Assembly: GCA_945919375.1 (NCBI GenBank)
Contig: CAMEJD010000005.1
Span: 19,304-83,303, forward strand
From: an uncultured Clostridia bacterium
Lineage (GTDB): Bacteria > Bacillota > Clostridia > Christensenellales > UBA1242
Reading direction: 5' to 3'
DNA: 64,000 bases
Part shown: positions 3,001 through 25,900 of the stretch, in pieces
How the letters are laid out: every line of letters starts with the position of its first letter
Numbering within the stretch: the stretch's first letter is position 1
Made by a program: the position numbers and the translations under genes
Notes under the pieces: model-generated
What the model saw: the letters and a program-made list of their open reading frames with translations, nothing else
Told to the model about the DNA's origin: nothing
Databases searched by the model: none

Positions 3001-6000
3001 GGTCTGATAATGATTTATATGTTAAGTTAATGTCAACATTGTCAATTGGAGCAAGCGTCATATTTGTTTTGTCCACACTTAAATCATAAATTCCCAAAGT
3101 AAAATTATATTTTGCTACAAATGAAGGTGTCAATTTTTGGTCAACTTCCATATTCCCGTAATTGAATAATGAAGTTATCTCATTATTTTCTTCTTTCACT
3201 GGAACAAATTGCCCAATTCTTGAATCAAAATATCTAAAATCGCCGTTCCCTAAATCATAATAAATATAGAAATAAAGTTTTTGTATGTCTACTGATTTTT
3301 CAGTACCTTTCCCTGTTAGGTAAATTACATTATTTTTTGTTTGAGAAATTGTTAAATAATCTTCACTATCTTGCAAAACTTTAATTTTTACATCAGTGTT
3401 TTCAACAAGTGTGAGCCCAATATTTCTTAACAAACTTGATGACTTTGGATATAGAGCAATAGTACTTCTGTTCAAAATTTGCAAATCCATATCTTTTGTA
3501 ATTAAGCCCTCAACTTTGTTTGAATTTGTGTATATATTGAGTGAAGTATCACTGCTAATGTAATTTGTGACAACAACTTTAAGTTCCATGTTATCTTTTA
3601 TATTTAACTTATTTTGAAGTGCCAATGTTACATTTCCAGTTTTGTGCAAAATCAATTTTCCAGTTGCTTCAACCGAAATTATTGAAGTATCCTTTGATTC
3701 AATTGTATATTCAAGAAGTGAATCATTAAACAAATCGTTTGGCAAATAGCATTCGTTCAATTGATTTATTATTTCGCTAATAACTTTGTTGCCTTGCCCG
3801 TCTTTTCCAAGGTCATAGTACATCAAAATTATTGTATTGTTTGGATAGTTGTTTGAATTATAAAAGTTTTTGAAAATTAACGATTTTTCACCTGCTTGTG
3901 CAAATGATTGGCCATTATATTGACTTCCGTCAAAACACAATATATCTCCATAATATTGAGTGAGTGATTCCGTTTTGGTTGAAACAAGAGTTCTATCAAT
4001 ATATGTTTTTGTTATTGTGCTTGTTGTTTTGTCTTTGATATTTATCATATCATCGCCATTGCAAATTGCATTATAATTTACACCGTTGTAACTTAATATC
4101 ATTGTTGCTTCCAAATCGGTTTTCATATTGTCTAATGCTTGAACTTTGCAATTTGTTATTTGGGTGTCTGTTGTGCATTCAAGATATCCAACAAGTCCAC
4201 CAATGTTTTCATAGCCGGCAACAAATAGTCTTGAAATACAATTTATATATTTGCCACCTTTTGCATAACCAACAAGTCCACCAACATTATTTGGCCTGTA
4301 TGTTTGTTGACCTGTTTGTCTATGAATATTTCCCCTAACTAAAACATTTTTAATTGTTCCGTTTTCATTATAACCGGCAATCCCACCAATACAAGATTTA
4401 CTTTCTTTGTTATTTTGTGTAAGTGGAACTACTACATTCATATTTATTGCAACTGTTGTGCCATAGTCGTTATATCTATAGATAATATCATCTTTTGTAT
4501 CAAACAAAATTGAATCTTTTTGGCCGTTGCCCTTGTTGTATCCAACTATGCCACCAAAATAGTACCTGCCTTGTATGTCTGATAATTCCAATTGATATGT
4601 GTAATCGTCTGGCATAGAAACAATCAATGTTGATTCGCATGGGAGCGAAATTTTTATTGTTCCTTCATTATATCCACAAAAACCACCAACAAAATTTTCA
4701 ACATTTCCATTTAATTTTACAAGTGACAATTTTGTTTTTTCATCACCTTGCAATATTGCATTAACATTTGTTATATTGTCTGATTTATTTAATCCGGCAA
4801 TAAGTCCAACATAACTTGATGTATTTGAATCCTCTTGGACATCAATTTTCCCACTTATAACAATGTTTTCCAAATAAGCACCGGCATTTATTATGCTAAA
4901 GAGCCCATAATATTTTGCATTGCCTTCGTTTTTTATATTACTTGGTTTTTTTACTACAAAATTTTGAATTCTTGCACCACTTTCTCCGGTAATACCACCA
5001 TTTAATACGCCAAGTGGTTCAATTTCTTCACCATTTGCATCAATTATCCCACTAACAATATAGTATTTTTCCAAATCTATATTCTTTAATTCTTGCCAAG
5101 TTGAAATATGTAATGGTGCATCTTTTGTTAAACCATTCCCAATAACGACTTCGATTTCCAAACTATATTCATATTCACTGTTAGAAAGGTAACTTGAATA
5201 AGGAACAATACAAATTTTTCCACTTCCACCCTTTCCACCAGAATATTTTAATGTAATTTTTTCTGAGTTATAAACAAAGGACAAACTTGATAAATCCGAA
5301 CCTTGGTTTGGAATTGCTTGAACAGTGTAATTTAAGTTTGTTGCATTTTCTGGCACAACATATGGATATATATCATATTCATTATTTGTTGCGTCAAGAT
5401 ATATCTTTTGAGTGTAGTTTTTAACCCAAATATCTGTAACTTTTACATATGTTTTTATGTTAATTTGAACACTTGACGACCAAACTTGTCCATATTTGTT
5501 TATTGATGCTGTAATCAAAAACTTTAAATTATCGCAGTCTTGACTATCTTCACAACTGAATTTTTGCGTTTGTGGATAGAATTTTCCAAACACAATACTT
5601 CCGCCAATTTCGGTTAATTCGTAATAGTAAATATTTGTTAAGTCTGTTGTTTTTTGCCCATCTTGTGTATAACCTTCACTCTCAACAGAAAAACTCCAAT
5701 TTATTTCTTTTATTATTTCTTCATCTTTTTTGCCACTTGATGTTATTGCATTTGCCTTAAAAGATGCATTTGCCATTAACTTGTCAATATATGGCGTGTC
5801 ATTGTAAATATCAACAATATTTTTATATTTATCGTCTTTTCTTCCGTCATTTTTGCCAAGCAAAGAGAATGAACTTAATGGTTCAAAGCATTTTATTGTA
5901 AAATCGTAAGTTTTTTCATCGTCCAACTTTTGTTCTACCAAACAAAAATCTTCAATGGTATGATAAGTCAAACTTACGGATATATTTACAAGTTTTGCAG

Positions 6001-7936
6001 AAGTGTCATTTGTTTTTACCGTTTTATTGTTAATTATCTCAACAATTGATGTATCATCACTTGTAAATTTAACACTGTACATATCGCTGTCAACACTACT
6101 TGGTTTTACCATATATGCAATATCAAACTTAACTCCGCTTCCTGCAACATCAATGTTTTTTATGGTGTCAACATTTGTTCCTTTAACTTTTTTGTATTCA
6201 ATCTCGGCAATTCTTTTGCTTGTGTTTGAAGAAACATAAACCATAAAATCGTTTATATTTAATTCTTCTTTGACAACAACAGTCAATCTTGTTTTTATTC
6301 CATTTGACAATGTGAGAGTGTACAATGTTTTTCCAACATTAACTGCTTCTATTTGAATTTGCTTATCATTTTCTTGAACTTGAGTCAATTTTGAATAACC
6401 TAAACTTTCGGCATCGCAACTAATCAATATGTTGCCAATATATGCATCAGGTTCTTCAACAATTAACCCATCAAAGAGTTGTGTTTCTCCCTTTTTGATG
6501 TAAATTGTGTCATTTTTGTATTTTTCATCAACTTTGAATGCTTTTGCTCCCTTTTGTATTGTTATTTCCATATAGTTTGAAACTATGTTTTTGGAAAGAG
6601 GCGATTCCACTTCAAATGTGATTTTTATACTTTTATATTTTTCATCTAACACTCTTACACCATTAATTGAGAGTGTCCCACTTGCGTCTGTTAGGGCATT
6701 GTTATCATCATTTAACTCATAATTGCCATATTTTACGCTGATATATGGCTTTAAAGCTTTATAAGTTGTAGGTGTTTCTTGTCCTAAATCATCAACAAGT
6801 GCAAATTTTACGCTGATTGGAGAAAACTCTGCATTTATGGGGTCCAAGGAAAAAAGAACTTCTTGTGTATTTTCACTTGGATTGTTATCGAACAAATTAA
6901 AACTGAGTTTTCCAGAATTTCCATTTAATTTAATATTTTTTGGAATTAACTTTATGTCAACTTTATAACATAAATCAACATAGTACTTTGAATAACCTTT
7001 GTGACTTATTCTCACAATCAATTCGTCATAACTTTCGGTTCTTCCGTCTTGATATTGCAAGTTTAAGTTTATTGAATTCTCCACATCCGAATTTATTTCT
7101 TTGTCTATAATCAAATTGCCATTTTTGCTTAAAAATTCATATTCGTAGCCATATTCAGGATTATAAACAAATTGCAATTTTTTGATATATTCATTTTCAT
7201 CATTCGGAATAAGTGTAATAACTCCCGGTATTTCGTCTATTGTAGAGTTCACATATTCATATTTTGCAAGTTCCCTATTATAGACCGACATTGTTGTATA
7301 TTCCAAACTATTTAAGTTTATTTCATCCAACACTATAACATCAAACTCAACACTTAAATTTTCGTTGTACACACTTTGTGCAACAACATTAAGTAGGTCT
7401 GGTGTGTTTTCGTCAGTTGGATATAGTCCATTTTCAACATTTTCACCATTTATCTTAAAGTTAAGTTTTGTTTGCAATGTTGAACTTGGTTCAAAGTTGA
7501 ACAAATCTTCACTTATTGAGAAATTTTGTCCCCTAAGCACATACATAAATGAATTATCTTTTAGTGCAAATGAACGAATATCTTCATATACTTTTACTGG
7601 TACCTGAATTTTTGAGTTATTTTCCAAAAGTGTGATAGTTAATGTTGTGTTTCCACTTGCCAATCCTATGACTTGGATTTTAAACACACCATCTTCTATC
7701 TCTTCTGTTTTTTCAACCCTTGCTATTTCACTATCAAAACTATAATCAAAGTGAATATTTGATTTAAAATAGTTTTCTATTTCAATTTGATAGTCTTTTG
7801 TTTCTCCCAAGCCAAGTTCAATACTTTGGCTGGAAAAATGGAGCAAAAACCTGTCAAAGTTTTCACCGCACCCATATAGCGTTATAACAAAAGCTAACGC
7901 AAAAATGATACTAAATAATTTTATAAATCTTTTCAT
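1..7936 (-). CDS. Giant surface lipoprotein with GLUG-type repeats. Only the 5' part is in the window (at least 2645 codons); the 3' end lies beyond the window start.
   Basis: Absent from the supplied ORF track because it has no stop inside the window. The reverse-strand ATG at 7936 (alternative in-frame ATG at 7948) is preceded by GGAG. N-terminus MKRFIKLFSIIFALAFVITLYGC has a signal peptide and a lipobox-like Cys. I hand-translated the same frame at 7936-7860, about 4290-4190 (..RPNNVGGLVGYAK.., ..ENIGGLVGY..), 2698-2681 (LTGKEY) and 58-2 (DGCDAEGTLTNPILIYSAK) and found no stops. The + strand here has only short L/F-rich ORFs. Confidence 0.8.
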   Translation of the reverse strand, partial: MKRFIKLFSIIFALAFVITLYGCGENFDRFLLHFSSQSIELGLGETKDYQIEIENYFKSNIHFDYSFDSEIARVEKTEEIEDGVFKIQVIGLASGNTTLTITLLENNSKIQVPVKVYEDIRSFALKDNSFMYVLRGQNFSISEDLFNFEPSSTLQTKLNFKINGENVENGLYPTDENTPDLLNVVAQSVYNENLSVEFDVIVLDEINLNSLEYTTMSVYNRELAKYEYVNSTIDEIPGVITLIPNDENEYIKKLQFVYNPEYGYEYEFLSKNGNLIIDKEINSDVENSINLNLQYQDGRTESYDELIVRISHKGYSKYYVDLCYKVDIKLIPKNIKLNGNSGKLSFNLFDNNPSENTQEVLFSLDPINAEFSPISVKFALVDDLGQETPTTYKALKPYISVKYGNYELNDDNNALTDASGTLSINGVRVLDEKYKSIKITFEVESPLSKNIVSNYMEITIQKGAKAFKVDEKYKNDTIYIKKGETQLFDGLIVEEPDAYIGNILISCDAESLGYSKLTQVQENDKQIQIEAVNVGKTLYTLTLSNGIKTRLTVVVKEELNINDFMVYVSSNTSKRIAEIEYKKVKGTNVDTIKNIDVAGSGVKFDIAYMVKPSSVDSDMYSVKFTSDDTSIVEIINNKTVKTNDTSAKLVNISVSLTYHTIEDFCLVEQKLDDEKTYDFTIKCFEPLSSFSLLGKNDGRKDDKYKNIVDIYNDTPYIDKLMANASFKANAITSSGKKDEEIIKEINWSFSVESEGYTQDGQKTTDLTNIYYYELTEIGGSIVFGKFYPQTQKFSCEDSQDCDNLKFLITASINKYGQVWSSSVQINIKTYVKVTDIWVKNYTQKIYLDATNNEYDIYPYVVPENATNLNYTVQAIPNQGSDLSSLSFVYNSEKITLKYSGGKGGSGKICIVPYSSYLSNSEYEYSLEIEVVIGNGLTKDAPLHISTWQELKNIDLEKYYIVSGIIDANGEEIEPLGVLNGGITGESGARIQNFVVKKPSNIKNEGNAKYYGLFSIINAGAYLENIVISGKIDVQEDSNTSSYVGLIAGLNKSDNITNVNAILQGDEKTKLSLVKLNGNVENFVGGFCGYNEGTIKISLPCESTLIVSMPDDYTYQLELSDIQGRYYFGGIVGYNKGNGQKDSILFDTKDDIIYRYNDYGTTVAINMNVVVPLTQNNKESKSCIGGIAGYNENGTIKNVLVRGNIHRQTGQQTYRPNNVGGLVGYAKGGKYINCISRLFVAGYENIGGLVGYLECTTDTQITNCKVQALDNMKTDLEATMILSYNGVNYNAICNGDDMINIKDKTTSTITKTYIDRTLVSTKTESLTQYYGDILCFDGSQYNGQSFAQAGEKSLIFKNFYNSNNYPNNTIILMYYDLGKDGQGNKVISEIINQLNECYLPNDLFNDSLLEYTIESKDTSIISVEATGKLILHKTGNVTLALQNKLNIKDNMELKVVVTNYISSDTSLNIYTNSNKVEGLITKDMDLQILNRSTIALYPKSSSLLRNIGLTLVENTDVKIKVLQDSEDYLTISQTKNNVIYLTGKGTEKSVDIQKLYFYIYYDLGNGDFRYFDSRIGQFVPVKEENNEITSLFNYGNMEVDQKLTPSFVAKYNFTLGIYDLSVDKTNMTLAPIDNVDINLTYKSLSDLDKISLEIYYIDGEFMEKIKNDEYFEISITETKENELYKQTYNVSMKTSNIKIGKYRFKFVNSTNSLYKNVEVLYISQPINNIVVKNYNDITNKNIKIVDELTGKEYFNTSYAMQESDSVAAGGVNILRIDVAPFYADFDYVEITNSANNMQTGKILMFSLLTNSEKENQKVVSTDSYYTSNGIRIYKNALKDGDITLLYTLYTNVIEGEVVDIDINFYNSNDEKVFETYNQSYVIDINKSITVTLKDRDSEIRNNVKYIARGYTYGLDVKSVGYNFDEIKIVSNSPYLSIIRDGDSYQMKVSEFVTYGNGENDEGAKASVSYYGERIVNGQRVQSSFGTIDFVIVEYVLDIINSGNDLDISNLIDTSPLELNVKNTIKDIRVLIADKIRLENANSASNAVKKLKQDIVNNAYFEYQADRIGGEYKRLFNTGDTKTYNDEYMSIDGYSVTPKHVGENVFSFRILVKTITYRNGYIKVTIDEEDVSSMTYTQVGVNINQSISSKNYLPIKTYNELLNMKEDCKYRLLNDIIIETDFTPISTNIRELDGNGYCLIFRYNYIINNAESFGVFGEVGENTIIKNLTVKIDSYKEINFTFENADVQSFDFGLFASSNKGVITNCEVIAGNSTSLLRVNNYASVDITASSNISAFVAKNEGYITNSRVQIRIESEGGNLSGFVGDNDGHIASCYVKESYIRNTSPDVKNSTAGFVKTNNSKIINSYVEGKYVSGNKKMYCDDSQYLVRASSIASTFVYNNKGEINNCYANIPIISSSQNSGFVCINEGLIENVYTTSRLGDNDTQNYPFFITNLAEIKHCYYLNDDNFNVNVNKSNDGLDGDVLRKTSLLEFALNKIVDAENRIITNEELFSTFVFNGASKVNHGVWFYANNDTTKDLLKTQNGRYIKIGEKIGVSDYYYLLRKVNTIENIAVDEFKKQGSENAINFVSYRPQLVSANELAYSHYQLSEDDSKLNEETGEIDYVYNIDGCDAEGTLTNPILIYSAK

Positions 7937-7969
7937 TTTTTTCTCCATTTTTCCATTCCGTTAAGTATT

Positions 7970-10900
7970 TTAAATTTCAGGTCTTGTGATGTCTATTCCA
8001 AATATATTTTCGCCACCAACTGTAATGTAGTATGCCCAAGACTCTGTTTGGTGCTTATCTTCAATAAAGTATTCTGATTGAAATATTGAAGTATCGGTTT
8101 CTACAACTGTTATTGCATCATAGATATTCTTTTGAGCAGTTTTAATTTTGTAGATATATTTTGGGTTCTTAATCTCTGGTTTTGAAGCATTATCGTTATA
8201 AACTTCCATTTTTAATATGTCAGTTATTGTTATATCGCTAGATGAACCTTGAACGCTTCTTACAATTTGTGTAATTTTTGTTGTTTGTTTAACTTGTTCA
8301 TAAAGGATATATACATCATTTTCCGAGTTACCCTTTCCTACTGCTCTGTTTGTTGCAACAATATCATCATTTTCGTCGGTTATGTTTTTGATGTAAATAT
8401 AATTACCATTGCTATCTACAACATCTTTTCCGTTTCCATCTTTAAGTTTTTCATAACCATCATCTGTAAGATTTTTAAGTGTGACATTTTTGCTCTTTTC
8501 AACATACTTGGAACCTTCAATGTTTAATCCCGGTTTTGTATCAAGTGAAGATTGTGAAAGGCTGCTTTTTATTTCGCCAACTTGAACCATCAAATTTTGC
8601 TTTATTGAATATTCGTGGTCGTTTGTTTTGTATGTTACATCAACTGAAATATAATCAAATGTTCCAGTAACCCCACCAAATATTTCATATGTTTTTTCTG
8701 TTATTGATATCCCACTATTTGACACCTTACTACTGAGTCTATATCCACCATTAAGCAAGTAGTATTCATTGGTGCTTGTTTTTATTGCATATCTAATGCC
8801 CGAGGATTTTTCAATTGGAATCAAAGTTTCCAATGTAACATCTTTACTTTCTATTTCAATCTTTTGATAATTTGTTATATCAAAAATTGTTGAATCTTGA
8901 TATTTGTATGTCTCATAGTTTACTTTGATTGAACTGTCGTATTTTGTTGTCAAAGACGATTCCTCATAACCAATAAATTCTTTTCCACTTTCAATATCAA
9001 TCTTGATTTTACTTGTTCCATAGTCTACTTCAACCCATTGAACATCACCAGATTTTGATTTTGTTACATTGTTTATAGCAAGTCCACTTGTAATATTATT
9101 TTTTTCGTATATTGGATTAGCGTTTTTGTATATTTTCAAGTTGTCGTTTATTGCATAAACATATATATTTTCAACAATAGTCAATTGGATCTTTTCCAAA
9201 TTTGATGAGAATTTTTGTATCTCGCTACTACTCAATGCATTATTCACATTTAATGAATAATATGGATTAGGAACATTATTGTTTTGGGTTATAAATGTAT
9301 TTGAACTAAATTCTTTTCCATCAAATTGAGTGATTAAAATTGCTTGCATATCTCTTGCAACTTGCAAAACATCTGTAAATAACGAATTTTTTGAAATGCT
9401 GATTATGTTTGATGTGTAGTCTTCTTTTACATAAAAATCAAATTGTTTGTAAACTACTGACACTAACTTTTTGTTTTCGTCAATAATAAAATTCTTTATC
9501 TTTGCATCACTATCTTTGTTTGTGAATGTATACAAATTGTTGTTGTAAGTTACATCATATTGTCCAAGCAATGTGTATTCTTGCTCATTGCCTTCAAATT
9601 TATAGAATATTGTGTTACCACTAACTCTATAAGACAATTTTCCAATTGTAGTATATGAACTCTTGTAAATTACTTCGTGTGAGCCATTTTCCACTTTTTC
9701 TATAAGGCTTATTTCATTATTGTCGTATTCATAAGTGAATGTAATTGTTGTTTTTACATTTGGATGAACAGTATTGTCTGTGTAAGAAACAACTATAACT
9801 TTTGAGTTGTCCTTTTCGGTTACACTGTAATCATTTATTGAATACTTGCCTGATTCACGACCATCTTCTCCTCTTTGATAGTAAATATCATAATTGTTGT
9901 AATTTGATATTGGGTTACTGTCTGTTTTCTCATCAGAGTTCAGTATATTTTTTGTTAATGTTAACTTTATACCAAATTGTCCAATTGTAAAAGTATAGAT
10001 TGCCGAGAATTCTTTTGTAACAACTTCTTTCATTATCTCATTCTTGACATTTACAAAATAGTAAATATCTTTTTGAACATATGAATTTACAATTTCACAA
10101 GTGTCTGCTTCTTTGCATTCATTTAGTGGAAGCAAGTTGTTTTCGCAGTTTGTAGCATTTACTGGAACAAACAATTCATTTCTTTCAAGACTATTGCGAG
10201 TTTCGTTATCGTTATCATCAAAAGCAAGGTTATAAGTTGTTGTTCCCATGTAATATGTTATTGAATCTTTTATCAAATAAACATAGTCAACAACTTTATA
10301 TCCGCTATTGCCATCGGAATCTCTCTTTCGTTGAGAAATAATTGCAATTCTTACACGACTTCCAGAATCCATATTGAATTCTTTGCTCATATATGTTTTG
10401 AAACTTGTTTCATTTTTAACTGTTTGTTCATGTTTTGGTAATATATTGTATGCCATGGTCTTGTTGCCTATATCATATCTCATGTCAAAATGTTCATATG
10501 TTACATCACCAAAGCAATCTTGCATTGTTTCTTGCAACTCATAAACAATCTTGTTTGAATCGTCAGTTGAATAAATGTATGGGATTTCTCTTATAATTGA
10601 TTCACTTGATATTGTAACATTTTCATCTTTTACCATGGTTTTGTCAAATGAGATTGTTGCTTTGAACCTATTATCTTCAACGGCAAATTCGATTGTCTTG
10701 TAAGTATATTGTGTTGATTCTTTCATCTCACTTGATACCATTGTTGAATCAGTTATTGAGAAACTACATTTTATTTGATTGTTTAATTCGTCAAGATATG
10801 CAAATTTGTTTTTAAAAGCTGTTGTTGTGTCAACACCTTCATATCCACAACTTACAAATGGGGTTTCATATTCATAATTGTCATCTTCGAATTTTGAATT

Positions 10901-13900
10901 ATCATCATCTTCTTTTGGAAGTTTTGATTCATCAACTTTAAACAAATGCCTATCAACAGATTTTGGTAAGTAGGATTCATATCTATCAGTTATTGGATAT
11001 GCTTGCGTTTTATAGTTTTCATAGATATCAATATCGGTTATATAACCGTTATATGCGATTAAAGAAATGCCAACATTTTTATCCATTGAGAATTCTCCAT
11101 CTTTTGATGGTTCACCCTTTAACTCAACTTTGTAAAGAACTTCTGTGAATTCATAACGATCTTCACCTTGTTTCTTGCTATTTATGGTACTCTCAAATGA
11201 TAATCTATCCATATGAATTACATTAACTAGGTATGCTTTGTGATAATTATATGAAGTGTATTGTTCTCCATTAACATACGCATTACTGTTTGTCCCAGAG
11301 AATGATTCTGAACTATATTCATATGCATCCACTTTAATATATCCAGAAAGAACCGTTTGCTTGCTGATACCCAATTTTGTTGAAGATCTTTGATAAGTTT
11401 CTTCGTAATATAAATTTGTGTTATTTAGTATACTTGAATCTGATAAGAGTTTTTTGCTGTCAACATTATTCGCTTTTTGTGGAACACGATTGTATGTGAA
11501 TTTGGCAAGCGATAGTGATTTTGTATTTACTTTTATACTTGATGAAAGTGTGCCAACAATTCCATTATTATTTCTATTCCCAATAATGTCATCTGCATAT
11601 GCTTTGTTTGCATAACTTGAGCCACCAATACCGGAATATATAAGCATTCTTTGGTAATATTTCCCACTGTCGTCTATGCTTGTTTCTTGCTTTCCAACAT
11701 AAACATTTTCAACATCTTTGAATTTTGAATTTGTGTCTACAAATCCAACAAAACCGCCTGCGTAAGTTGTTGCATTTTTATTTGATGTTTGAGCATAAAT
11801 GCCTTTTAGGGCTATGCTTACTGTTGACATTAGTTCAACATTTCCATTTTGGTAACCAAATGCTCCACCAACATAAATGTTTTCTTGATTACTTTCGGCA
11901 TCAATTACACTCTTTTTGTAATTTCCGATGGTCACATTTGAAATTTCGGCGATATTGCCCAAGTTTGAACCAACAAGTCCACCAAATATGTTATTGAACG
12001 AATATCTTGCACTTATTTGCATGTCGTTTATTTCAGAGTCTTGCACTGTAAGTGAACCTACATTTGTCCCAACAAAACCACCAATACCAAGATGTCCCGA
12101 ATTTGCGTTAATTAAATCTTTGTATTCATAGCCATTTAGGTCAATATTCAATTTTGCAATATTAGAATTTATGATTGTTACATCACCTTTGTTGTAACCA
12201 ACAAGTCCACCTATTGAATTTGGATATTTGCCTGATTTTGTATTACCTTTTGTATCAATCTTGTAATCTTGTAGGCTATAAGTTACATTAACATTGTCTA
12301 TAATTACTTTTCCGCCGTCTTGGACATTTCCAACAAGTCCGCCGACATTTTTATTGTTATCAAGCGAAATATTTTTGTTGTTTGATGTATATGAGAATTT
12401 AAGATTCTCAATTTCAACATCTCCGGCATAATCAATTAGTGATGGAATAGCAATTTCAGTAAATTGCATTTGTGTTAAACTATACTGGCCTGCTCCAACA
12501 ATTTTTCCATTGAATGGATATTCTTCAGTTCCTAGTGCATATTGAGCACCAACAACTTTTGCATTCACATTGATTATGAATCTTCTTTCAGTTCTATTGA
12601 TTGATTTGATTGATGTTAATTTTATGGTCGTTTGTGCATCTTGTTGATTTTCTATATAACCTGTTTTATCAATATTGTTAATCAATTCTACTGCCTTGTT
12701 GTATAGTTCATATGGTTGAACATTTGTGTTTTCGTTATCAATTGTAATGATCACATCTTTTCCGCTAACTTTAACATTTTCAAGCAAGTCCTTTATATCT
12801 GCTTTCTTGATTTCGTTTGTAAGTTTCCATTCGTCATTTACCTTTTCCCAATCGCCTTGAGTTCCAAAAGCATTTTCAATTTCACTATCGGATGCTGCCG
12901 TTGTTAGTTTGCTGATAGTATTCTTGTCATTATATACAACATTGAATGCTTCAAAAACATTTTGTTCTTTACCTTCTTCATTAGTGTATGTACTATTATC
13001 AAACAAGCCGTAATAATTTTTGCCAGCAACTTCAATTCCTTTATACATTTGATATTTTGACATTGTGTTTGTCAATTTCCCACCATTTGCAGGGAATCCG
13101 ATTGGGTCAAAGTATACATCATAAACATTTAAAGAATCTGAGTTATAGTAATCCTTCCCGCCATAACTTAATGTGTTTAGTGTATAATTTTTGTTTTGTG
13201 ATATTTCTTTTAGTTTGTCAGGTGTAATTGCTCCTGAATCTACCGGCTGTGCCCAACCAATTGGGAATACCCAATCATCTATTGTAATCAATTGTGGAAC
13301 AATATTTGCTGCAACATCTATTGCATTTGGTACAACTAAAGCAATATTTGTCCCAATTACTCCAACTTTTCCTGCTGTTATCAATGAAATAACTTTCTTT
13401 AATATTGCTGTTCCTGCTTTGCTTAATACACTTATCCCCAATGTTTCAAACTCTGAAGTTAAATTAAAATTGTAGCCTGTTACATAAGTTTTTACAGACG
13501 AAACATTTACTCCACTGTTGTTATATTGATTTCCAATATAATATAAATCTTTATTATTTAAATATTCATAACCATTGCCGGCAAAATATCTTTCGTATAA
13601 TGGGAAACTGAAAGCCATTGCTAACGAAGTTGCGGCAATGCCTGCAATAAGACATGTAGCCATAATTGGCTTAGATATTGATTGAACTGGAATTATCGCC
13701 GCCAAATCATGCGCAGTGTCTAATCCTGTTATTACAGCAGCAGTGATACTAATTCTTGTTGCAAATCTCCAAATTTCTGCATCATATACCGAATGTATAT
13801 TCATTGAGTCCATTCCACCATGGATATCTTGAGATAAATTCAAACTGTTTTCAATACTATTGTATGAATTTGCAATACCTGCAGAGTATGCTTTTTGTTG

Positions 13901-16900
13901 TATTCTTGTATATAACAATTTACTATATGAATCAAACCATTCACCCTTTTTATAGTAGTTGTAATATTCTTGGAATTTGTTACTATTTACATAAGTTTTA
14001 ATCCCAAATTGAGATTTTGTTCTTGTGAAACCATTATTTCTGTTAAGTTCGCCATCAATGCTTTCTTTAATATTGTCTTCATTAAATTTGGCATCATCAG
14101 TGAAAACATCGTATGAACCACTATCATTTTTAACCGCATAACCAATTACATTTTCATTTGTGTCATCACGCTTTATGTATGCACCGGTATCTGGGTCTTT
14201 TTTATAACCATCTGTTTCTAGTTGACTTTCTGACATTGTTGTTTCCTTTTCAACTTCATAAGTCAAGAATGAACGATAGTAGTATGCTGCTTGTGAGTTT
14301 ACAGAAGCAAGGTTCTTACAATTCTTAATTGTTCCACCATATCCACTTATCCCACCTGCATAGGTTTCCAAAAACTCAACATGGTTACCTGCAACAATGC
14401 TTACTTCGTTGGTATAGCAATTTGAAATTTCTCCACTTTCCGATTTTCCAACAATCCCACCAGCATATAATGTTTGGTCAGCATTGTTGTTTTTGATATT
14501 ATCAAAAATATGTAAATCACATCCAACAAATGCATCATAAATTTTCCCACCTTTTTGTTGTCCAACAATTCCGCCAACGATATATGTTTTCCCAGTGAGA
14601 GCAGAGCCTTCGGCAAATTGAATAGAGATTTGTGAAAGTCCGTTACCTTTTTCAGAACTTCCACTAATAAATGAGATTGCAGAAACTCTACCACTATTTA
14701 GTACGCCAACTGCACCACCAAATATCCAGTTTATGTTTGGTTTCAATTCAATATTTGCATCACCATCTCCATTACTTTTCAATTGTATTGTACAATTAAG
14801 TATTCCATTTGGAGTGGTATTTGCATCTTCTTTCACATTGCATTCGCCAACAATCAAACCAAGACAATAAGGTCTATCATTTTCTATGCCATTAACTGAA
14901 CCTAAGGAGCTTGACAATGTTTTAACATTGATAACCATTGTAACATTTGTTATCTTTGTTTTTTCTGAAATTGAGTTTGCAAGCAATCCTAAACTTGATA
15001 TTGAGGTAACGTTATTAACAATAACATTATCAAATATAACATTATTTATTGTAGAATTTTGAATATTGCTAAATATTCCACCTTTATTACATGTCATATT
15101 GGCAATAACAAATTGTTCGTTGATATTCTTTTGATAATAATCGAATTTTCTGCCATCAAGATTTACATTGCTGATATCTTTTGAAGTCCAGTTTAACAAA
15201 TTCTTCCTTCCTGATGATATGTATTCTCCATCCATATTATTGTCCAAAACAAAGTATGCTAATGTTGTGTATTGAGCATTTTCTGGTAATTGTTTTAATT
15301 TGCCCAAGTTTGGTACTCTGTATGGATTAGTTTCTTCTCCAGTTCCTGTTGCAAACTTCATATAGTCAATATTTTTATAAGAAACATTTGAGAATGAACC
15401 ATATCCAAAAGCATAATTTTTGTCAATTGCAAAATCTCCATAATATGAATCTACGCTATCATTTGTATTCGCATATGAAACCGCCATACTATCTGTTGGC
15501 TTTCCTAAAGAATTATTGTCATCTGATATATTTGCCTCAATTGCAAATTTATCATAGTATGAATTTGTTGTTTCATTTTCATCAAAAGCAAATCTTTTGT
15601 CCTTTAAAGTTATGGTTTTAAGTTTTCCTTCATCAGAAATCTTTGCAATTGTGTATGAACCATAAACTTTGCCAGGAGCAAACGCATAAACAAGACCATT
15701 ATTATCCTCGTCTTCTTTCTTTGTACTATTGTCAACCGTCCCTGTTGCAAAAGATGTAACGATATAGCCATCATTGTTTCTTGCAAAGCCAGCAAGTGTA
15801 ATATTGGCAGATTCTTTTTCGGATGATGAACTTACGCCCTTGTATGTTGATGAAACATCAAGATACGTGAAACAATTTTTGATTAGGCCGTCATTTGTAT
15901 CAACAAAACCAGCGGCATAACCTTTTGAAGTTACATAACCTCGATTGATACTTTCGGCAAGTGTAGTACCATTTCTATTACCTGCATTGCAAGAATAAAT
16001 TATTCCTTGATTTTTGTATGCAAATCCAGATGCAGATGGTATACCATTTGCCCCTGTTGAGATTGATGTTATATTGTTTATAAGAGAAGTTGTAACAATG
16101 CCCGAAACAAAACTATCTGAATCAATTGTTCCAAATGGCGCCATATTTTTTGTTTGACCTTTACTGCTGTCAAGTTTAAGTATTGCACCATCTCCAACAA
16201 TTGCTGAATTCTTTAATGTTATTGGTGTTGTTTCTGATAATTCAATTATATCAGTTCCCAAATAAATATATTGTTTGCTAACTTCAATTTCTTTTGTTTT
16301 TGCACTTGGCAATCTTGTTGCATAGTTGACTTTTGTCCCCTCAATAAAGTATTCGCTGTCTTTAACTTTTGGATTTAACTTGCCTTTGATTGAATTATTA
16401 AGTAAATCTGCAAGTTTCATGTTTTCTGTTGCACTTGTATGTTCATCTGTGCAAAGTGTGTACACATTTGAATATTTGTTTTGAACTGACTTATCGTCAA
16501 CAATACCTTCTCCTATAATTGCATTGATTGAAGTTCCGTCTTTTCCTATCCTGTTGTCTGCTTTGTTATATAAAGTGCTTATTGAATAGTTGTTTGAAAT
16601 TGTATGATTTGCAACTTCGCTTTCTATCTTCCCTACTATTCCTCCATAAACAAATGATTGATACATATCATATTTTATTGATACATTATCATTGTTTGTT
16701 GTTTGTTCATAATTTGGATAGATACTTCCTGCTGAAATATTGTTTGAAACAACACTTGCATCTTTGCCAAGTTCATCTTGCATATACGCAATAAGCCCAG
16801 AAGTATATAGAACAACCAAGTTCTTTTCATTGTTTTTGCTATCAACTCTCATATCTCCTGTTGTGTAACAATTAAATACTTTTGAGTTCTTTACAAAACC

Positions 16901-19900
16901 AAATGCACCACCCAAGTTAATATCATATGAATATTCAGTCTTTTGTGGTAATGTCAAGTCAATGTCGCCATATACTCTTGATACTGATGCTTGGTCATTT
17001 TCGCTTTCTTGTTTGCTTGTTGCATTTACAATTGAATTGTCAAGATAACCCGCAATTCCACCAATATACAACTTTTGACCTTGTGTTTTGTTGTTTGCAA
17101 GTTTTAAAGATAAGTTTGCATAAACTTTTACATCAAAAACTTGTCCGTTTTCAAGTTTTCCAACAACAAAACCAATATTATTTGTTTTGCTTATGTTATT
17201 TATTGTTATTGAACCTTTGTTTGTTGATTTGTTACCATCTTTTTGTTCATAGTTACCAATTACAATATTTCTAAACGAAGATTCAACACTTTCGCCAACA
17301 ACTCCACCAAAATTATTATTTTGGAAGGTTATGCCACCAATTTCAATGCTTGGTATGAAACTAACATTTGTAAAAGAACATTTTCTACTTTCACCAGCAA
17401 CGCCACCTATTCTTGAATCTTGAATTGATGGAATAATTAACTCTGGCAAAACAACTTCCTTTTTCCCATCCAAGTTTGTATTTGAGTTTGCTACACTTAC
17501 TTCGGCATATTCAACACCACCCAAGAAAGCACCAATGCTGATATTCTTAAATATTGGGTTTGTTTTGCCTTCACCCAAGATTACTTGGTTATCTCTTTTG
17601 TTTGTTATTTCAATGCTTATTGATTTTGAATCGTTGTTCAATATGGATTGAACATTACCTATTACCAAACCAATATAAGATTTGTTTGAATCGTTGCCAA
17701 GATATTCATTTGCAAAATTGATTTTTGAGTTATTTACACTAACATTTATCAAAGAATTTGAGTCATATGACAACTTCCCTTCACCAAACAACAAACCAGT
17801 ATTTATTTTGTTTGGACTGCTCTTTATGTTGATTTGGCAAGATTCGAATGTAATGTTATTAAATTTGCATGAACCTTTTGCCACAGCACACAATACACCA
17901 ACATTAAGGTTTCCGGTATTATATTCTTCAATATTTATACCACTAAATGTCAAACTGTTGAATGATGTGTTATTTGCAGTTCTAACCAAAACAGAAGTAC
18001 TATTCAAACTGCTTGATTGTTTTATACCGTCACTATATTTTACAACAAAGTTACTTAAAGTTGCACCTAGTGTTGTTTCAAACAATGCTCTTGTTTGGTC
18101 GGTTTTGTAAATAAATCCGTATGTTGATTCTGGGTCTTCACCGCCACGAAGTACATTTGAGAATCCAACAATTGGAGCAATGTATCTTGTGATTCCAATA
18201 TAGTGTTCTTTGCCGATGTGAACATTTTCTGGTGAGTTATCAGGTTCAATTATGTATGTAACTTTTCCCGATGACACACTTGTTCTTAACTTTTCTAGAT
18301 CTCTTTGGTTTTTAATTTTTATTGTTTTGTCAAAATATCCAAATACCATATGTGGATAAAGTTCGTCAGTATCTCTTTGCCAAGAATTTGCATCCCAGTT
18401 GTTTGCAAAGAAGATATAGTCAAAGTATTCACCAAATTCATAACCTTCGGCATACTTTGTATTTACGTCTGCTTGGGTTTCTTTTATTCCTTCCCAAGCA
18501 TTTGCAGACGTTGGGTCATTTGCAAAACCATAATTTTGGTCTAGCCTATATGAATCAGAAATTCTTGATTTTGATGTGCTACTTCCGTCTTTTTCATTAT
18601 TGATTATTGGGTCAATGCCGTTTTTGTTTGAGTCAAATATCCAAGATCCCCACAAATTCAAAGCATTCACTCTTTCCAAAATTGTAGTTTTTGCTGTATC
18701 AGTGTTCAAATCTCTACCAACAACACCTGCTGTATATTCTTTTGCTCTAACATCACCGGTTGCATAAACTTCGGTTAGTTTTGTTGCATCGTCATCACCA
18801 GAAAGAATATTAACAATACCAATAATTCCGCCGGCAACTGATGAATTTGTATTTACAACATTCAATTTTGAATATGATTTTTCAATTTTTCCACTTTCTT
18901 GCAAGCCAACAAGTCCACCAACTGCAATTGGGTTATAATTGCTGTTATAGAACAAATCTTTGTTCCCTAATTCAATTGTTGAATTTTCATAATTATGAAT
19001 GCCATTTTCTTCTGTGTAATAACTTAAACTATTCTTTTCAATCAATTCTTGCAAGGTTAAGTTGTTTTCTATGTCAAAGATATTTACATTATCATTTTCT
19101 GACTTAACTTGTCTTAAATACCCTTTATTAATACCAGCAATTCCACCTGCAAAACCATTATATGAATAAAGTCCTTGTTTTGAGTAATCTAAAATAGATT
19201 TTGAATATGGCATAAATTGTATGTCTTGCATTGTTGTTTGTGGTCCAATATATCCCGAGATACCACCAACAGTTCCACCGGTTACTACCATATTCCCAAC
19301 GTTTTTAAGTGCAACACCAGTTGCATTTGAAATTACTGTCACTTCTGTGAACTTGTAATTATCTTTTGTTTGGGCTGTATAATAATCTATAACACCGGCA
19401 ATGCCACCTGCATATGATATGGTTGAATTGTCACCAAATCTCAAATATTTATTAAATGTATCAATTTCACCAATAGTTTTAATTGAAGTTGTGTAATAAG
19501 CAGATGTAACATTGATATTTTCAACTGTGTCGTTAAATAAGTGAGATTCACCTTTAACCAAACCAACAAGTCCACCAACAATGTTTTTACCTCTAATTGT
19601 AACATTGTCCGCTTTATTTAATGCGCTAATATTTACATTGATAATTTTTGAATCAATAATTTGACCTGCAATTGTTCCAACATTTTCAATATTTTTTGCT
19701 TCAATACCAAATATTTCTTTTTCGTTGTTTTGGTCACCAACAACAACATTAAGGTTGATAACAAGTGCACCACCTTCCAACCTGCTGAACAATCCAAAAC
19801 TATCTAAAGATTTATTGTTACCTGAATCAGTTAATGCAAAATTGCTTATTGTAAAGCCATTGCCATCAAGTTTTCCAGTTGCTCTTGTGTTATAACTTCC

Positions 19901-22900
19901 ACTAAGAGTTTTTACTGATGATGTTAAATCATATTTTTCCGAACCTGTTGCCAAGTCATGTAAATCAATATTATCTATTAACCTATAATTACCAAATGCA
20001 ATTGTTTTTGTTGAGTCGTCAACAAATCTATCAACACTCTTGTTTGCAGTTCCAGAAAATGCTTCGTTGAAATCTTTTGCATTTCTAATAAGAATTGGAT
20101 TGTTTATTGAACCATATGCAAAATTATCTACATATGCTGTTTTTGGTTTTGAAAGGTTTTCACTTTCTTTGCTTGTGTATCTTAACGAAACCGCAATATC
20201 ATTTGCACTAACAAGGTCAGGACCTTGAGTTGTCATTTTCCAAATTCCATCATTATATGTTGTCGCAAAGTTAAAACCATAGAAGTATTCTTCAATAATT
20301 ACAGATGACACAGATGTTGCACTTTCGCCATATGCTTTTTGGAATGAGATTGAGTCACTTTCCAAAGCAACTTGGTCATAATAATAGCTGTTTGTGATTG
20401 AATCTTTGTCACTAATGTAATTCCCAAGTTCGTCAACACCAGAGAAATTCATTTGTGTTGTTGTTGAACTGATAATTCTTGAAAGCGACAATGCGTTTTT
20501 GACTTTCCCACCTTGTGTATTTGAGTAAACAAAACCGGCACTTGACCTTCCTGGGTTATTTTGAAGGTTTGTTAAGTTGATATTTGAGTAACAATCACTA
20601 ACATTACCTTTGTTTTGATATACAAAACCTGAAGCAATCCCAGATGTTTCAATTCCAAATCTTGTTGCATGAATATCTGTTTCCAAGGCTTTTACACCTT
20701 TTGAATAACTCATACTGATTGTGCCATTATTGTTGATAACAAAACCAGAAGTTATTGTTGTGTAATTTATTTGAGAATTGTTTATGATTCTTACGTTAGA
20801 AGCAAAACTGCTTGTTATACTACCATTATTTTCATATACAAATCCCGCAATTTCGCCAAAAGAGTTAATTGTAAATACAGGCAAATCATAGTTTGAAGAA
20901 TTGCCACCATAAGAATATCTATATTTGATATCTTTCACACTTCCCGACTTGTCAACTTTATAAACATCAAGTTTTGTTCCGCCAACTCTACTATTTGTTA
21001 TAGTCCCATTGTTATACATAACAAAACCGGCTGTTTTTGCTGTAACTTTTGTGGTTGAATCTGTTGAGATAAGAATTCCTGTTGATTGTTGTCTTATGTC
21101 GGCACTAACATCAAAATAGTTTACAACTTCACTATTTGTAATTATACCATTATTGTTAATTGCCATTGGTGCAACATTGATTTCGCTTGTTTGTGAACTA
21201 TCAATGTTTATTGTACCAATATTGTAAATATTCAAGCGAATATTTTTTAATAATGTATTAGTTTCTACATTTTCAAATAATGTAAAGTTTGTTACACCTT
21301 GTGCAAAACTTACAATAGAGATTGTGTAACCATTTCCATCCAAACTTGCAATACTTGCTGTTGATGCAATTGGTGTATACTCATACAATCTTATATCTCT
21401 CATCAAGATGTAATGCTCTTCACTTTCGGCATTGAATTTTTCCAAGAATTCATCTGCGGTGAAGATTTGAACAGGTTCATCATCATTTAATTCTGCTTTG
21501 ATTTCAATTGTAAAGTAATATTTATAAATAGTTCTGTTGCCGTCTGGCATTTGAACTGGTAATTCAAGCAACATTTTTTGTGAACCAATTGTTTTTCCAA
21601 TATAGTGCAATACGGCATCAGTTCCTTCGCCAACTTCACTAAATTCAACAATATTATTTTCAATATATTTGTTTGTTGTTGAATTATAGATTGGAGTTTT
21701 TGTATCACCATTAACATAATATAAGTTTGACCTTAATACTTTTGCTTTTGATGAATTGCCAAGGGTTTTGTTTACGCCGAATCCGTTTTGACTGTTAGAA
21801 TAGCAATAATTGTTTGAAATAAAGTATTCAAATTGTTTTTGACCATATTTTGTATACTTACCTGCAAAATCAAAGTCAAGTTCGTGTTCAAAGTATATAT
21901 CGCCAAAGGCTTTGTCTTTGCTATTGCTATTTTTTATTGCTGTGTTTTCAATATCAAAATCAAAAGGAATAATATAAATTAACATTTGTGAAGTCAAAGT
22001 TTCTTCAATTCCGTTGATAACTCTTGATGTTTCAACTATCATTGTTACATCTTTGAAACTTGTTTCACTTAGTGTTACTGTAAATGTTCCCTTTTCATAT
22101 GTTGCATCAATATCTTGCCAGTCATTATTAAATAATATTGTTCCAAACCCTGTGTCAACTTCTTTACCATCAACAACAGCTGAAAGTTTGTAATTATTTT
22201 TTAATGTTTGTGATTTATCTTTTATAACTTGAACTGTTAATGTATCACCCAAAAGTGCAAAATATGTTCCACTTTCTCCGTCTATGCTAAGTCCCGGAGT
22301 TACAGGCGGATTTACTAATAATGAATACACTTGTGTATATACTATAATGTTATCTTTATTATATACATTTATATATATATCAAATATTGTGTTTGTTTTG
22401 ATATCTGAAGATGCAAGGGCACGAACATAGAATCTTGAAATATCATTATTAAGATTTGAATTCTTTTTGAAGATTTTTACACCATTTTCAATAAATTCAA
22501 AATTCATAAGTTTGTCTACAAAGTATGCAGATGAGTCACCTTCTTCGTCACCCTTTCTCATACTTAACAATGCTAATTTTTGACCATTAACTGGTTGGCT
22601 TGTCACTGTGATATATTCAAAATTAGCATATGAAGGATAAATCATAACATCCAGCAAACTTGGTTTTGTTGTTGATATTGTGTTTGTTGGATAATAGTTA
22701 TATCTTTCACCCCCAACAACTTTTGAAGTTTCTCTATATGAATAGTTATTTATATCAATTCTAATGATTTCTTGGTCAATTACAACAATTTTTAAATCTA
22801 CATAAACTGATGAATAAATATTCCCCGCATAAAATCTAACAATATAGTATGCCGAATCAATTAAACTTAATTTTTCTTTGTTTAGTTCAATTGACAAATC

Positions 22901-25900
22901 GTAATATGTTGTTTCATTGTTTGTATGGCAAGAATAAACATATGCATTAAATAATCCTAGTTCATTTGATTTGTTTAACATCAAACTTGAACTATCTTGA
23001 CTGAATATTTTTATTCCATTTTCATCAAATATTTCACAAGCAAGTTGTTCATCTTGAACATCCGAGTTGATATTTACTTGGAATTCCAAGGAATCGCTTG
23101 CAGACATATTTACTTCTTTTACGGAAATTGCAATGCTGTTTGGACCTTGCAAAGGTTTTAAAGTTAATGTTTTTAGTGTGTTATTTTTGAGAATTTTTGC
23201 AAAATTATCATTAAGACCATTAAGTCTTAAGTAAATTGACATATTCAAATCATCATCGCTATTTAATGAGATTAAGTGTGTTCCAATTTTATTTCCAACG
23301 ACGTTATTAAGTTTTGTTTCATCGTCTTTATTTTCAAAAACAACATCAAAATCACTTGTTTGCAATGAGAATTTTGTTTGATTTAGGACAATATTTTCAT
23401 CAAGTGAAGTAATAAATTTTTGAGTTGTCCCCTTCTTTAACCCAATTGTATATCCACTTGGCAATGTATAATCATTGTAAGAAATTGTAAAGTTGTTAGT
23501 ATTGTAGATAACCTTTATGTTTATTGTAACAGGGTCAATGCTTCTATCATATTTTGAACTAATAGTCAAAACAGCATCCCCTATGTTGTTTACTTGAAGC
23601 GTTCCATTTGTTAAAGTCAAAATATTTGAATTTGATTCAATATTAAGACCATAAATACCTGAAATACCAAACAAATCTAACAAACTAATTGTATTTTTTT
23701 GTAATAATGCTTTATTTTCTCTTTCGGTCAGTGTTTGAACTGTTTTATTTACAAAAAGAATTGCATTATTTTCATCTTGTTTAAATGAAAGGTTTGTTCT
23801 TTGGATTTGCAAACCTGAGAGTTCACTTGCAGTAATTGGAATAATTCTCTTTACGTCTCTCAAATATGGATAACCAAAGTTTTGTTGCAAGTCACCATTA
23901 TTTAACCAAGTTTCAGAATTGCCAAATTTTACACCATTATATATATAGTTAAAATCTGTGGCTGTTCCCGTTAAGGTTTGTCCATTTTGTTTTGTCATAT
24001 AAAAAGTAAATTCATAAGAATCATTATTTTTGTAAGTTATGTAACAATCTTTGATTACTTTTTTATCATCTACATTTTGTGAAAGTTCGCCAAAAATGTT
24101 TTGTGCAACGCCCAAATTTGCAAAACTTTCTGTAATTTTTGCATTTATACTACTAATTTTCCCAACAAGTCCAATAATGTTTGCATCGTTTGCAATTGCA
24201 TTATTTTTGCCAAAGTTATATGCATATGACTTTGTTATTGTGCCTTTTTCGGCAATTTCTCCAACAAAACCAGCATACACTTGACCTTGCATAGACATTT
24301 GGTTGGCGCCATCCTTTAGGTCATAGAAGATTACTTTGCAATTTTCAATAATACCTGTATTTTTTCCAGCAATTCCACCAACAACCGACAAATTATTACT
24401 GCCAAGAACTGAACCTTGGAAAGTTACATTTGATATTGTGCCATTGTTTTGACCAACAACACCACCAACATATTCACTATCATTTTGAACAAATGAGTAA
24501 TTTTCTTGAGAGTAAGAATCAATTGTAACATTATCAATTTTACCATTGTTTACATTTGCAATTGAACCTGCACCATTTGTTACACTGCATACGACATCAA
24601 AATCTGCAACAACTGCATCCTCACCAATTTCACCAAATATATGAGAATTTAGTGTTAATGTTGCTTTAAAGTTTGAATGTGAGAGTTGTCCATAAAGTCC
24701 ACCATTAAACTTTTCGAATAATTCTGTGTCAACAGTAAGGTTAGATATTGCTGTATAGTGCAAATCTCTGTTTGTAATTTGACTTGCATCAGTAATTCTT
24801 ACAGAAGTTTCTCTTGATTTTCCATCTGCAACTGTTAAATATATTCTGGCAATTGGTGTATTTTCTCTATAGTATGTGTTACCATTTTTGTCCAATAAAA
24901 TTGCATCAGTTGGAACAATTACAATAGTACCCTTGCCACCATATTCGCCAGTTACACTAACAAGACCATCATTTGAAATTGTTATAATATCATTTCTTGT
25001 CCCATTTTCTGGGTAGAAAATATATGAGACATCTTTAACAAGTGCATTTTCAGGAAGCACATCATTTATAATTTTAAAGTTATTATCGTTATACTCATTT
25101 GATATAGATTTTGCTGACAAATATAAATTGTATTCGTTATTTGTTACATCAACATTCGTTGGAATGATTTGTTCTACTCTTTGTGCTTGTTGAATTACAA
25201 AATTGATTTCTTTTACATAGTGTGTCAAATTTCCACCAATATCATTTGCAAAAATATACATTTGAATCAAATTGCTACTATCTTCAATTCTAAAGTTTGC
25301 AGTAACAACATAACTATTACCCAATTTTTCTATAACAAGTTGTGTATCATTATATTGTGGTGAAAAATATTCATAAGGGTTATTTTCATCAACAACTATT
25401 CCACTTTCATAATCAGGAGATTCAGCAAAATAAACTCTATCATATGTTGCTGGAGAATTTGCATCGTTTATCTTTACTGTGAATGTGTATTTTGAAAGTG
25501 CTTTATTTCTTTCGCCGACTTCATTGTAGGCATAAAGTTCAATAACACGGTCACTTATTGTCAATGATTGCACTGGGTTATAAACTTCAACAAGGAAGTA
25601 TTTATCTATTTCACAAGGTACCAATTCATAATTTTCATTAAGCATTGAGCCAACAAAAGTTGCTTTTACCCAAACTTTTCCAAGTTTTAATGTTGTAAGG
25701 TAATCATTTGACCTTAAAACTTCTGTGCTTAGTATATCTGATGATTGCGACATATTAAGTTCTTGAAAATTTAGCCCGTTGAATTTAACATAGTCACTAT
25801 TTTCGTCATAAACATCGTCATTTACCGAAAGTTCTCTATCAAAGAATTCAAACAAAACATTTGAAGTCATATTTGATGTAAATTTAAGTGGGACCATACG

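Follow-up and report, generated by a model that had tools for sequence, protein, structure and literature searches.

The window considered here is a stretch of 64,000 nucleotides from an uncultured Clostridia bacterium (GenBank assembly GCA_945919375.1, contig CAMEJD010000005.1, positions 19,304 to 83,303 of the forward strand). It carries the gene for a giant predicted lipoprotein of 6,608 amino acids (aa), and at 70% of the length of this chain lies a hydrophobic segment, predicted to form a helix-turn-helix hairpin, that is the subject of this report. A first-pass annotation of the DNA had pointed to a cluster of membrane-like hydrophobic helices about 4700 residues into the protein, and had suggested that it might act as a second membrane staple or as a latent module for membrane insertion or translocation, or else mark where two functional halves are separated by processing. 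The gene, its anchor signal, and the hairpin with its immediate flanks are listed below, where KD denotes Kyte-Doolittle hydropathy, moment the Eisenberg hydrophobic moment, and AF2 a structure predicted with AlphaFold2. Identities are to the nearest orthologue.

7970..27796, minus strand: giant lipoprotein gene, 6,608 aa (open reading frame of 19,827 nt), with full-length orthologues in the genus
27704..27796, minus strand: signal peptide and lipobox L-S-G-C with the predicted lipidated Cys31; KD 2.27
13775..13918, minus strand: conserved N-flank, a degenerate GLUG-like unit KLLYTRIQQKAYSAGIANSY...GGMDSMNIHSVYDAE, aa 4627-4674; 88% identity
13697..13774, minus strand: helix 1 (IWRFATRISITAAVITGLDTAHDLAA), aa 4675-4700, helical in AF2; KD 1.37; moment 0.32; 54% identity
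13685..13696, minus strand: turn IIPV, aa 4701-4704, from AF2; Pro4703 lies in the turn, with Lys4709 and Pro4710 nearby
13595..13684, minus strand: helix 2, aa 4705-4734 (AF2 helix 4705-4728); KD 2.02; 33% identity
13517..13603, minus strand: conserved Tyr-rich C-flank PLYERYFAGNGYEYLNNKDLYYIGNQYNN, aa 4732-4760; 93% identity

The N terminus of the protein conforms to that of bacterial lipoproteins, as the first-pass annotation had assumed when it described the chain as lipid-anchored. The sequence L-S-G-C matches the lipobox pattern [LVI][ASTVI][GAS]C, the enzymes Lgt (221 bits) and LspA (117 bits) are both encoded in the host genome, and lipidation of Cys31 is predicted. A lipobox Cys is found inside the first ~30 residues in all 11 of the full-length orthologues (6,459-6,805 aa). 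The database gene call for the protein, P0002, is 6,603 aa long, as would be expected if translation began at the second Met, at window position 27781. Over its whole 6,608 aa the protein is acidic, with 8.9% K+R versus 12.1% D+E.

The host genome (1.16 Mb in 26 contigs, 96.8% complete) also encodes YidC and signal peptidase I, and no sortase (PF04203) was detected in it. Ten open reading frames (ORFs) of more than 1,500 aa sum to 32,920 aa, or ~8.5% of the genome, the largest being 6,613 and 6,269 codons long. All ten begin with a signal peptide or a transmembrane (TM) segment, and three giants other than the one described here carry a C-terminal TM anchor formed by a helix and a basic tail. 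The LPXTG motif is absent from all ten ORFs, and no [LIS]Px[TSA]G motif occurs within the 6,608-aa protein. Membrane anchors thus seem to be the sole means on which the surface proteins of this lineage rely.

The hydropathy of the protein was evaluated with a 19-residue KD window, together with Eisenberg hydrophobicity and moment and with sums on the Hessa scale. Three hydrophobic stretches were located, at aa 4682-4704 (13685-13753), aa 4711-4734 (13595-13666), and aa 4808-4837 (13286-13375). After the signal peptide (2.27), the maximum KD value of the protein is 2.02 at aa 4711, and the highest internal value after that, 1.63 at aa 4802, falls within the same cluster. Across the 32,920 aa of the ten giant ORFs, no further internal window reaches 1.8. 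The proposed cluster of membrane-like helices was therefore recovered where it had been placed. The accompanying statement that nothing comparable occurs elsewhere in the protein holds by KD, but it does not hold for the run of 24 uncharged residues that had been singled out, because the protein contains 12 uncharged runs of at least 20 aa. The other runs correspond to polar rungs of beta-helix.

The position of the segment is retained throughout the genus. When aa 4601-4900 were searched exhaustively with phmmer against 1.84 billion representatives, four matches were obtained, one of them spurious (P0006, discussed below), and a word-indexed search returned one orthologue, P0003 (6,599 aa, 83% identity overall). 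The sole return of a metagenome scan was an already-known orthologue with 73% identity. The module that contains the hairpin was found in 16 of 20 genomes of the genus, including 10 of 10 high-quality genomes, each time within an open frame of ~6,500 aa, and in 0 of 400 genomes from elsewhere in the order. All 16 species examined have an insert of 38-80 aa that is hydrophobic and flanked by the motifs GGxxxRxxxxYYDV(D/N) and YYxxG(N/S)GY. No collinear homologue lacking the segment, a possibility that had been raised against the staple proposal, was thus encountered. The insert lies at a relative position of 0.69-0.71 of the chain in 11 full-length orthologues, and an orthologue assembled from G414 is 6,628 aa long with its insert at aa 4649-4714. 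When the 740-1,400 aa available for each of 12 species were scanned, the insert, which makes up 4-9% of each such stretch, held the top KD window in nine species and the second-ranked window in the other three. An uncharged run of at least 20 aa occurs in the inserts of 14 of the 16 orthologues, the exceptions being L011 and L016.

At this fixed position the sequence itself changes rapidly, such that the insert cannot be aligned between species. A comparison with the flanks, which the first-pass annotation had proposed as a check, gave 46% identity to the nearest orthologue for the hairpin and 88-93% for the flanks, and the hairpin falls within the lowest 0.4% of the protein's 54-aa windows. 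The Nei-Gojobori ratio of nonsynonymous to synonymous substitution rates (dN/dS) is 0.35 for the hairpin and 0.08 for the flanks, where both ratios are approximate because dS is near saturation. The low identity and the contrast in dN/dS suggest that selection retains the composition of the insert and not its sequence. Such a combination is the pattern of lipid-facing helices and the opposite of that of a buried core.

A different composition is seen in the orthologues on contigs G404:C14 and G406:C88 (L029-L032), in which Tyr, Phe, and Trp (22% aromatic) take the place of Ala, Gly, and Val as the abundant residues of the insert. Although these inserts are uncharged over 40-50 aa, they score below 1.55 on the KD scale, which misses them owing to their aromatic character. 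Their composition suggests interfacial rather than spanning segments.

The conserved feature comprises the first two helices of the cluster, or ~55 aa (aa ~4675-4734). Structure prediction, another of the proposed checks, yields a helix-turn-helix in which helices of 26 and 24 residues are joined by a 4-residue turn and are bracketed by strands at aa 4669-4672 and 4730-4737. In this AF2 model, which was built from 12 species and has a mean predicted local distance difference test (pLDDT) score of 41, the hairpin is the best-scored part at 52-72. The model suggests, with low confidence, that the hairpin may be an excursion between two neighboring strands of an extracellular module, which would explain the two-fold variation in its length; at a mean pLDDT of 41, the pairing of the flanking strands is not established. 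A first AF2 run with four sequences gave a mean pLDDT of 33 and was unusable except for helix propensity.

The two helices differ in character. Helix 1 is amphipathic, with Arg4677, Arg4681, Asp4692, His4695, and Asp4696 sharing one face. The apolar core of helix 2, PIMATCLIAGIAATSLAMAFSFPLY, consists of 25 uncharged residues (aa 4710-4734) with a mean Eisenberg hydrophobicity of 0.68 and a moment of 0.06. The amphipathicity analysis that had been proposed therefore agrees with a membrane helix for helix 2 and less well with one for helix 1 (moment 0.32). Helix 2 is uniformly apolar among the orthologues as well, with mean Eisenberg values of 0.54-0.78 in all of them and a moment of at most 0.15 in 14 of 16. 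In most orthologues a Pro residue is found close to the middle of the insert. In 14 sequences, the middle third of the insert contains 17 K/R versus 6 D/E residues, whereas the outer thirds and flanks are net acidic. This distribution fits a turn located on the cytoplasmic side, and it is supportive without amounting to statistical proof because the sequences are related.

Helix 1 also carries an acidic stripe, D-x-x-(H)-D, at window positions 13709-13723 (aa 4692-4696), which occupies the same position in L007, L006, and P0004. The variants GLDTAHD, AIDTVHD, ASDAIFD, and GCDVVYD show that the stripe is kept down to 41% identity in the clade to which the window's species belongs, and it is absent from species of the genus outside this clade.

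Two other interpretations of the helix 2 region were considered and rejected. An internal start at Met4712, which would give a separate protein with its own signal peptide, is not tenable because this Met is not kept in the nearest orthologue. The sequence M-A-T-C at aa 4712-4715 resembles an internal lipobox, and was dismissed because Thr is not a lipobox residue at position -1.

Downstream of the hairpin, the cluster continues with a second hydrophobic patch and a further conserved part of the module:

13286..13414, minus strand: second hydrophobic patch (H3/H4), aa 4795-4837; KD 1.63; AF2 pLDDT below 50; dN/dS 0.51
12929..13285, minus strand: conserved downstream part of the module, DDWVFPIGW...LNVYDVYFDPIGFPANGG...YYG..DNS, aa 4838-4956; 87% identity

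The second patch lies within an insertion of ~60 aa that is found only in the window's clade and is absent or short in L008-L016 and P0005. The third hydrophobic stretch, which it includes, holds Lys, Asn, Asp, and Pro residues and is neither TM-like nor confidently helical. We therefore rejected H3/H4 as a conserved membrane element on the ground that it sits in a clade-specific insertion. The spurious phmmer match mentioned above involves this same region: P0006, a protein of 540 aa built from tandem repeats of ~55 aa (NFFDDLLAPLKAGFQKTKEQLKPYLHQ...), matched H3 with E=1.6e-6, looks like a compositional artefact, and was discarded as a homologue.

The surroundings of the hairpin are far more constant than the hairpin itself. 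In an alignment of 12 species, the N-flank has invariant columns K, Q, A, G, A, N, Y, GG, and Y, the C-flank has a YYxxG(N/S)GY motif in which two Gly residues are invariant and one Tyr nearly so, and the downstream part (aa 4838-4956) has invariant L, I, G, and Y columns. Together these parts form a Tyr/Asn-rich module around the hairpin (YYxxGNGYEY, DDWxxPIG, LYVYDVYFDSIG, YYG..DNS) that is confined to one genus and is not folded by AlphaFold. No relative of the Tyr/Asn-rich portions (12929-13285 and 13517-13603) was found in Pfam, NCBIfam, or the PDB. We describe the module as a genus-specific unit of ~330 aa in which the hairpin is set between two tightly conserved extracellular strands that are probably adjacent.

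Searches aimed at the hairpin gave the same outcome. Pfam has no match to aa 4501-5000 at E<=10, and Pfam and NCBIfam searches of the region and of both halves of the protein returned nothing for the hairpin module. A profile search of the PDB with the 12-species alignment found no match at E<=1, and a Foldseek search of the low-confidence AF2 model against the PDB returned noise only (best E=5.1). The 6,608 aa contain no HExxH motif, and the protein has no match to Peptidase_M26_C. For Peptidase_M26_N there is only a faint match at aa ~4240-4286 that falls below the gathering score (17.8 bits versus a cut-off of 27.7).

GLUG repeats had been reported on both sides of the hydrophobic region, and this arrangement is upheld, though the repeats are distant. 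Along the protein there are 23 GG[ILVFA]xG motifs, and the GG[ILV]xG motifs nearest to the cluster are at aa 4481 and 5152. The Pfam Glug family (PF07581) scores 35.1 bits, above its cut-off of 20.5, in three stretches within aa 5000-5400; the upstream blocks, at 19.6 and 15.8 bits (the latter in aa 4230-4680), are sub-threshold.

The adjacent downstream gene on the minus strand encodes a second giant lipoprotein, an open frame of 3,220 codons that occupies window positions 2-7948 and runs on upstream of the window in the contig. No internal hydrophobic cluster is present in this neighbor, and neither it nor the other eight giants of the genome contains a second copy of the hairpin feature.

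From the fixed position of the insert, its retained hydrophobic character, its rapid sequence turnover, its charge pattern, and the export machinery of the host, we infer that the hairpin may anchor the protein a second time, in the cytoplasmic membrane of the producer itself, with both flanks outside, and we assign this reading a probability of about 0.5. The Sec-exported chain would thread out through SecYEG until the apolar helix 2, together with helix 1 as its partner, exits laterally from the channel, a step in which YidC might assist. The hairpin would then stay in the cytoplasmic membrane, and inserts that are too short for two spans would adopt a half-inserted, re-entrant form. Fixation at both the lipidated Cys31 and the hairpin would divide the protein into a loop of ~4,650 aa and a free C-terminal arm of ~1,870 aa. 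Because no sortase was detected, anchoring to the wall appears to be unavailable, and fixation in the membrane would matter all the more. The second membrane staple proposed in the first-pass annotation thus fits the evidence best, but in a reduced form: only two of the helices are conserved, the third stretch being clade-specific, helix 1 is amphipathic and a poor span, and in several orthologues the insert lacks the length or the apolarity to cross the membrane twice.

A number of observations weigh against a second anchor. When the composition of the protein is shuffled, 62% of shuffles reach a 19-residue window of at least 2.02, 21% contain a 54-aa stretch as hydrophobic as the hairpin, and 3% contain a cluster of 163 aa as hydrophobic as that observed. 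The cluster in the single sequence thus only marginally exceeds, and is not clearly beyond, what composition alone produces. For this reason the single-sequence test was discarded as support, and the case is carried by positional conservation in 16 species. The simple Hessa-scale sum for helix 2 is about -0.3 kcal/mol, and sums below zero are obtained in just 3 of 12 orthologues, with values of +5.7 for L011 and +7.3 for L016. Helix 1, with a KD of 1.37, bears Asp4692, His4695, and Asp4696, which make it a poor membrane span. At 38 aa in L009 and 42 aa in L013, the insert leaves no room for two complete crossings, so a half-inserted, re-entrant hairpin must be assumed there, and L011 and L016 lack the long uncharged run. 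The confidence of the AF2 model is low overall. It is because the hydrophobicity is marginal that the anchor reading is held at even odds.

The same marginal hydrophobicity can be turned into an argument for a protein that is not fixed in its own membrane. By analogy with secreted toxins that form pores or translocate, whose apolar hairpins are buried, the hairpin might be exported as part of a soluble ectodomain and enter another membrane only later, such as that of a neighboring cell, a host cell, or a vesicle, or do so after a trigger such as low pH. A segment that is only marginally hydrophobic and rich in Ala, Gly, Ser, and Thr could pass SecYEG, the acidic stripe near the tip of helix 1 has persisted in the window's clade, and a reduced genome that spends so much of its coding capacity on giant surface proteins fits a dependence on cell contact. 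We consider this reading unlikely, as no similarity to toxin or translocation domains was found in Pfam, NCBIfam, PDB sequences, or PDB folds, the beta-rich, Tyr/Asn-rich flanks offer no amphipathic helices to shield the hairpin, and the stripe is missing beyond the clade. The inserts of L010, G417, and L014, with KD values of 2.05-2.3, would moreover be unlikely to escape stop-transfer. Decidedly unlikely is the specific form in which these gut Clostridia with their reduced genomes would use a conditionally inserting element to attach a tether of 6,600 residues to a vesicle or to the membrane of a different cell, with the Asp-x-x-His-Asp stripe acting as a protonation switch. The helices might also have no membrane role, and instead supply the apolar core of a small soluble or oligomerizing domain, such as a multi-copy bundle, or form a tolerated greasy linker. 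Single windows of this hydrophobicity are common in composition shuffles, L016 and L011 have short amphipathic helices (moment up to 0.59) and not spans, and the surroundings of the hairpin are unresolved by AF2, all of which would accord with such a role. However, a domain usually changes least in its core, whereas these helices change most, resist alignment, and differ in length by a factor of two. Their apolar character is nevertheless kept in 16 of 16 species with dN/dS below 1, helix 2 has no polar face, and hydrophobic windows of this kind are otherwise avoided by the exported beta-rich giants of the genome. The rapid turnover, the variable length, and the lack of a polar face on helix 2 argue against a buried soluble core, a placement that had been named as a challenge to a membrane role; the helices are instead the fastest-evolving part of the module. 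A non-membrane role is, on this evidence, rather unlikely.

Two further readings accept insertion into the producer's membrane and differ from a stable hairpin in what follows. Helix 2, oriented with its N terminus in and its C terminus out, might act as a second signal peptide that is cut by signal peptidase I at A-M-A|F (aa 4726-4729), which would detach ~1,880 aa at the C terminus from the part that stays anchored at the N terminus and so correspond to the processing boundary suggested earlier. The peptidase is encoded, a small-x-small motif of the AXA type comes after the apolar core of helix 2 (SLAMA|FSF), and a published model for the GLUG-bearing Zmp proteases places a putative signal peptidase site on the second of two TM segments (PMC3518915). 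Such triplets, however, are expected by chance in helices rich in Ala, Gly, and Ser, the motif is not aligned between species, and the best candidate site in L013 precedes a Pro residue. The released part would have no retention device of its own, and the highly conserved junction FSFPLYERYFAGNGY that comes right after the helix suggests a folded continuation. We find a cleavage of this kind quite improbable. Alternatively, helix 2 alone might span the membrane as a stop-transfer segment, which would keep the final ~1,870 aa cytoplasmic; the H3 patch might bring the chain back out in the window's clade, with the YYxxGNGY loop then left inside the cell. That helix 1 is a poor span would suit this topology, as would the single stronger segment per patch in the window's clade and in L008, L009, and L011, and the K and R residues directly after the first patch of L009. 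It would not be consistent among species, though, given that L010, L012, L014, L015, and G417 have at least two strong segments in the first patch and none in the second, and that L013, L016, G404, and G406 have no second patch. The C-terminal part also has significant GLUG repeats, as in the exported part, and AF2 pairs both helices, and we regard a single span as highly improbable.

If the hairpin is indeed a second anchor, then it shows how a monoderm bacterium in which no sortase can be detected keeps a chain of over 6,000 residues attached to its exterior. Such a chain would be stapled mid-way into a huge loop and a free arm rather than extending as one long fiber, and models of its reach and geometry would change. 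The giant lipoprotein is probably central to the way of life of the genus, given that 8.5% of a 1.16-Mb genome is devoted to giants and that the protein is retained in every good genome. For annotation, the result means that marginal, fast-evolving hydrophobic inserts in giant exported proteins are real conserved elements, on which topology predictors will disagree. The finding opens no long-standing question; what the analysis contributes is the genus-wide survey, the faster evolution of the hairpin relative to its flanks, the charge pattern, and the lack of a detectable sortase.

The hairpin can be compared with several known systems. By analogy, the T domain of diphtheria toxin, the pore domains of colicins, and the delivery region of large clostridial toxins also present a marginally hydrophobic helix-turn-helix with an acidic tip in an exported protein, but neither a sequence nor a fold match to them was found here, and the protein has no helical bundle that would shield the hairpin and no recognizable effector domain. 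CyoA of E. coli and QoxA and CtaC of Bacillota are lipoproteins that combine an N-terminal lipid anchor with membrane helices, and the topology as such is therefore known. These proteins are small enzyme subunits whose helices directly follow the lipidated Cys, whereas here the two proposed anchors would be separated by thousands of extracellular residues, and it is this double-anchor layout, not the principle of joining a lipid anchor to membrane helices, that is unusual.

The M26 zinc metalloproteases (IgA1 protease/ZmpA, ZmpB, ZmpC, and ZmpD) are likewise large Gram-positive surface proteins with GLUG beta-helix repeats, in which a signal peptide and a first anchor are followed by two predicted membrane segments, a layout to which the proposed hairpin would correspond. 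In the streptococcal Zmp proteases the two predicted membrane-spanning segments come after an N-terminal LPXTG, and the model for IgA1 protease and ZmpB proposes that the second one, which carries a putative signal peptidase site, serves as an additional signal peptide (PMC3518915). The protein of the window lacks the HExxH motif, the M26 catalytic domain, and the LPXTG, and is thus not a member of this family. Its first anchor is a lipobox and not an LPXTG, its hairpin is found 4,675 residues into the chain (70%) and not within the first ~150 residues, and the hairpins share no sequence homology with each other. The giant proteins of Omnitrophota resemble it in being very large and mostly extracellular with internal predicted TM helices, predictions that the authors of that work call uncertain (bioRxiv 10.1101/2023.11.21.568195). 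Those giants belong to an unrelated phylum and have many TM helices together with SecA-like and enzymatic domains, whereas the lipoprotein described here has one hairpin, at a position that is kept throughout its genus.

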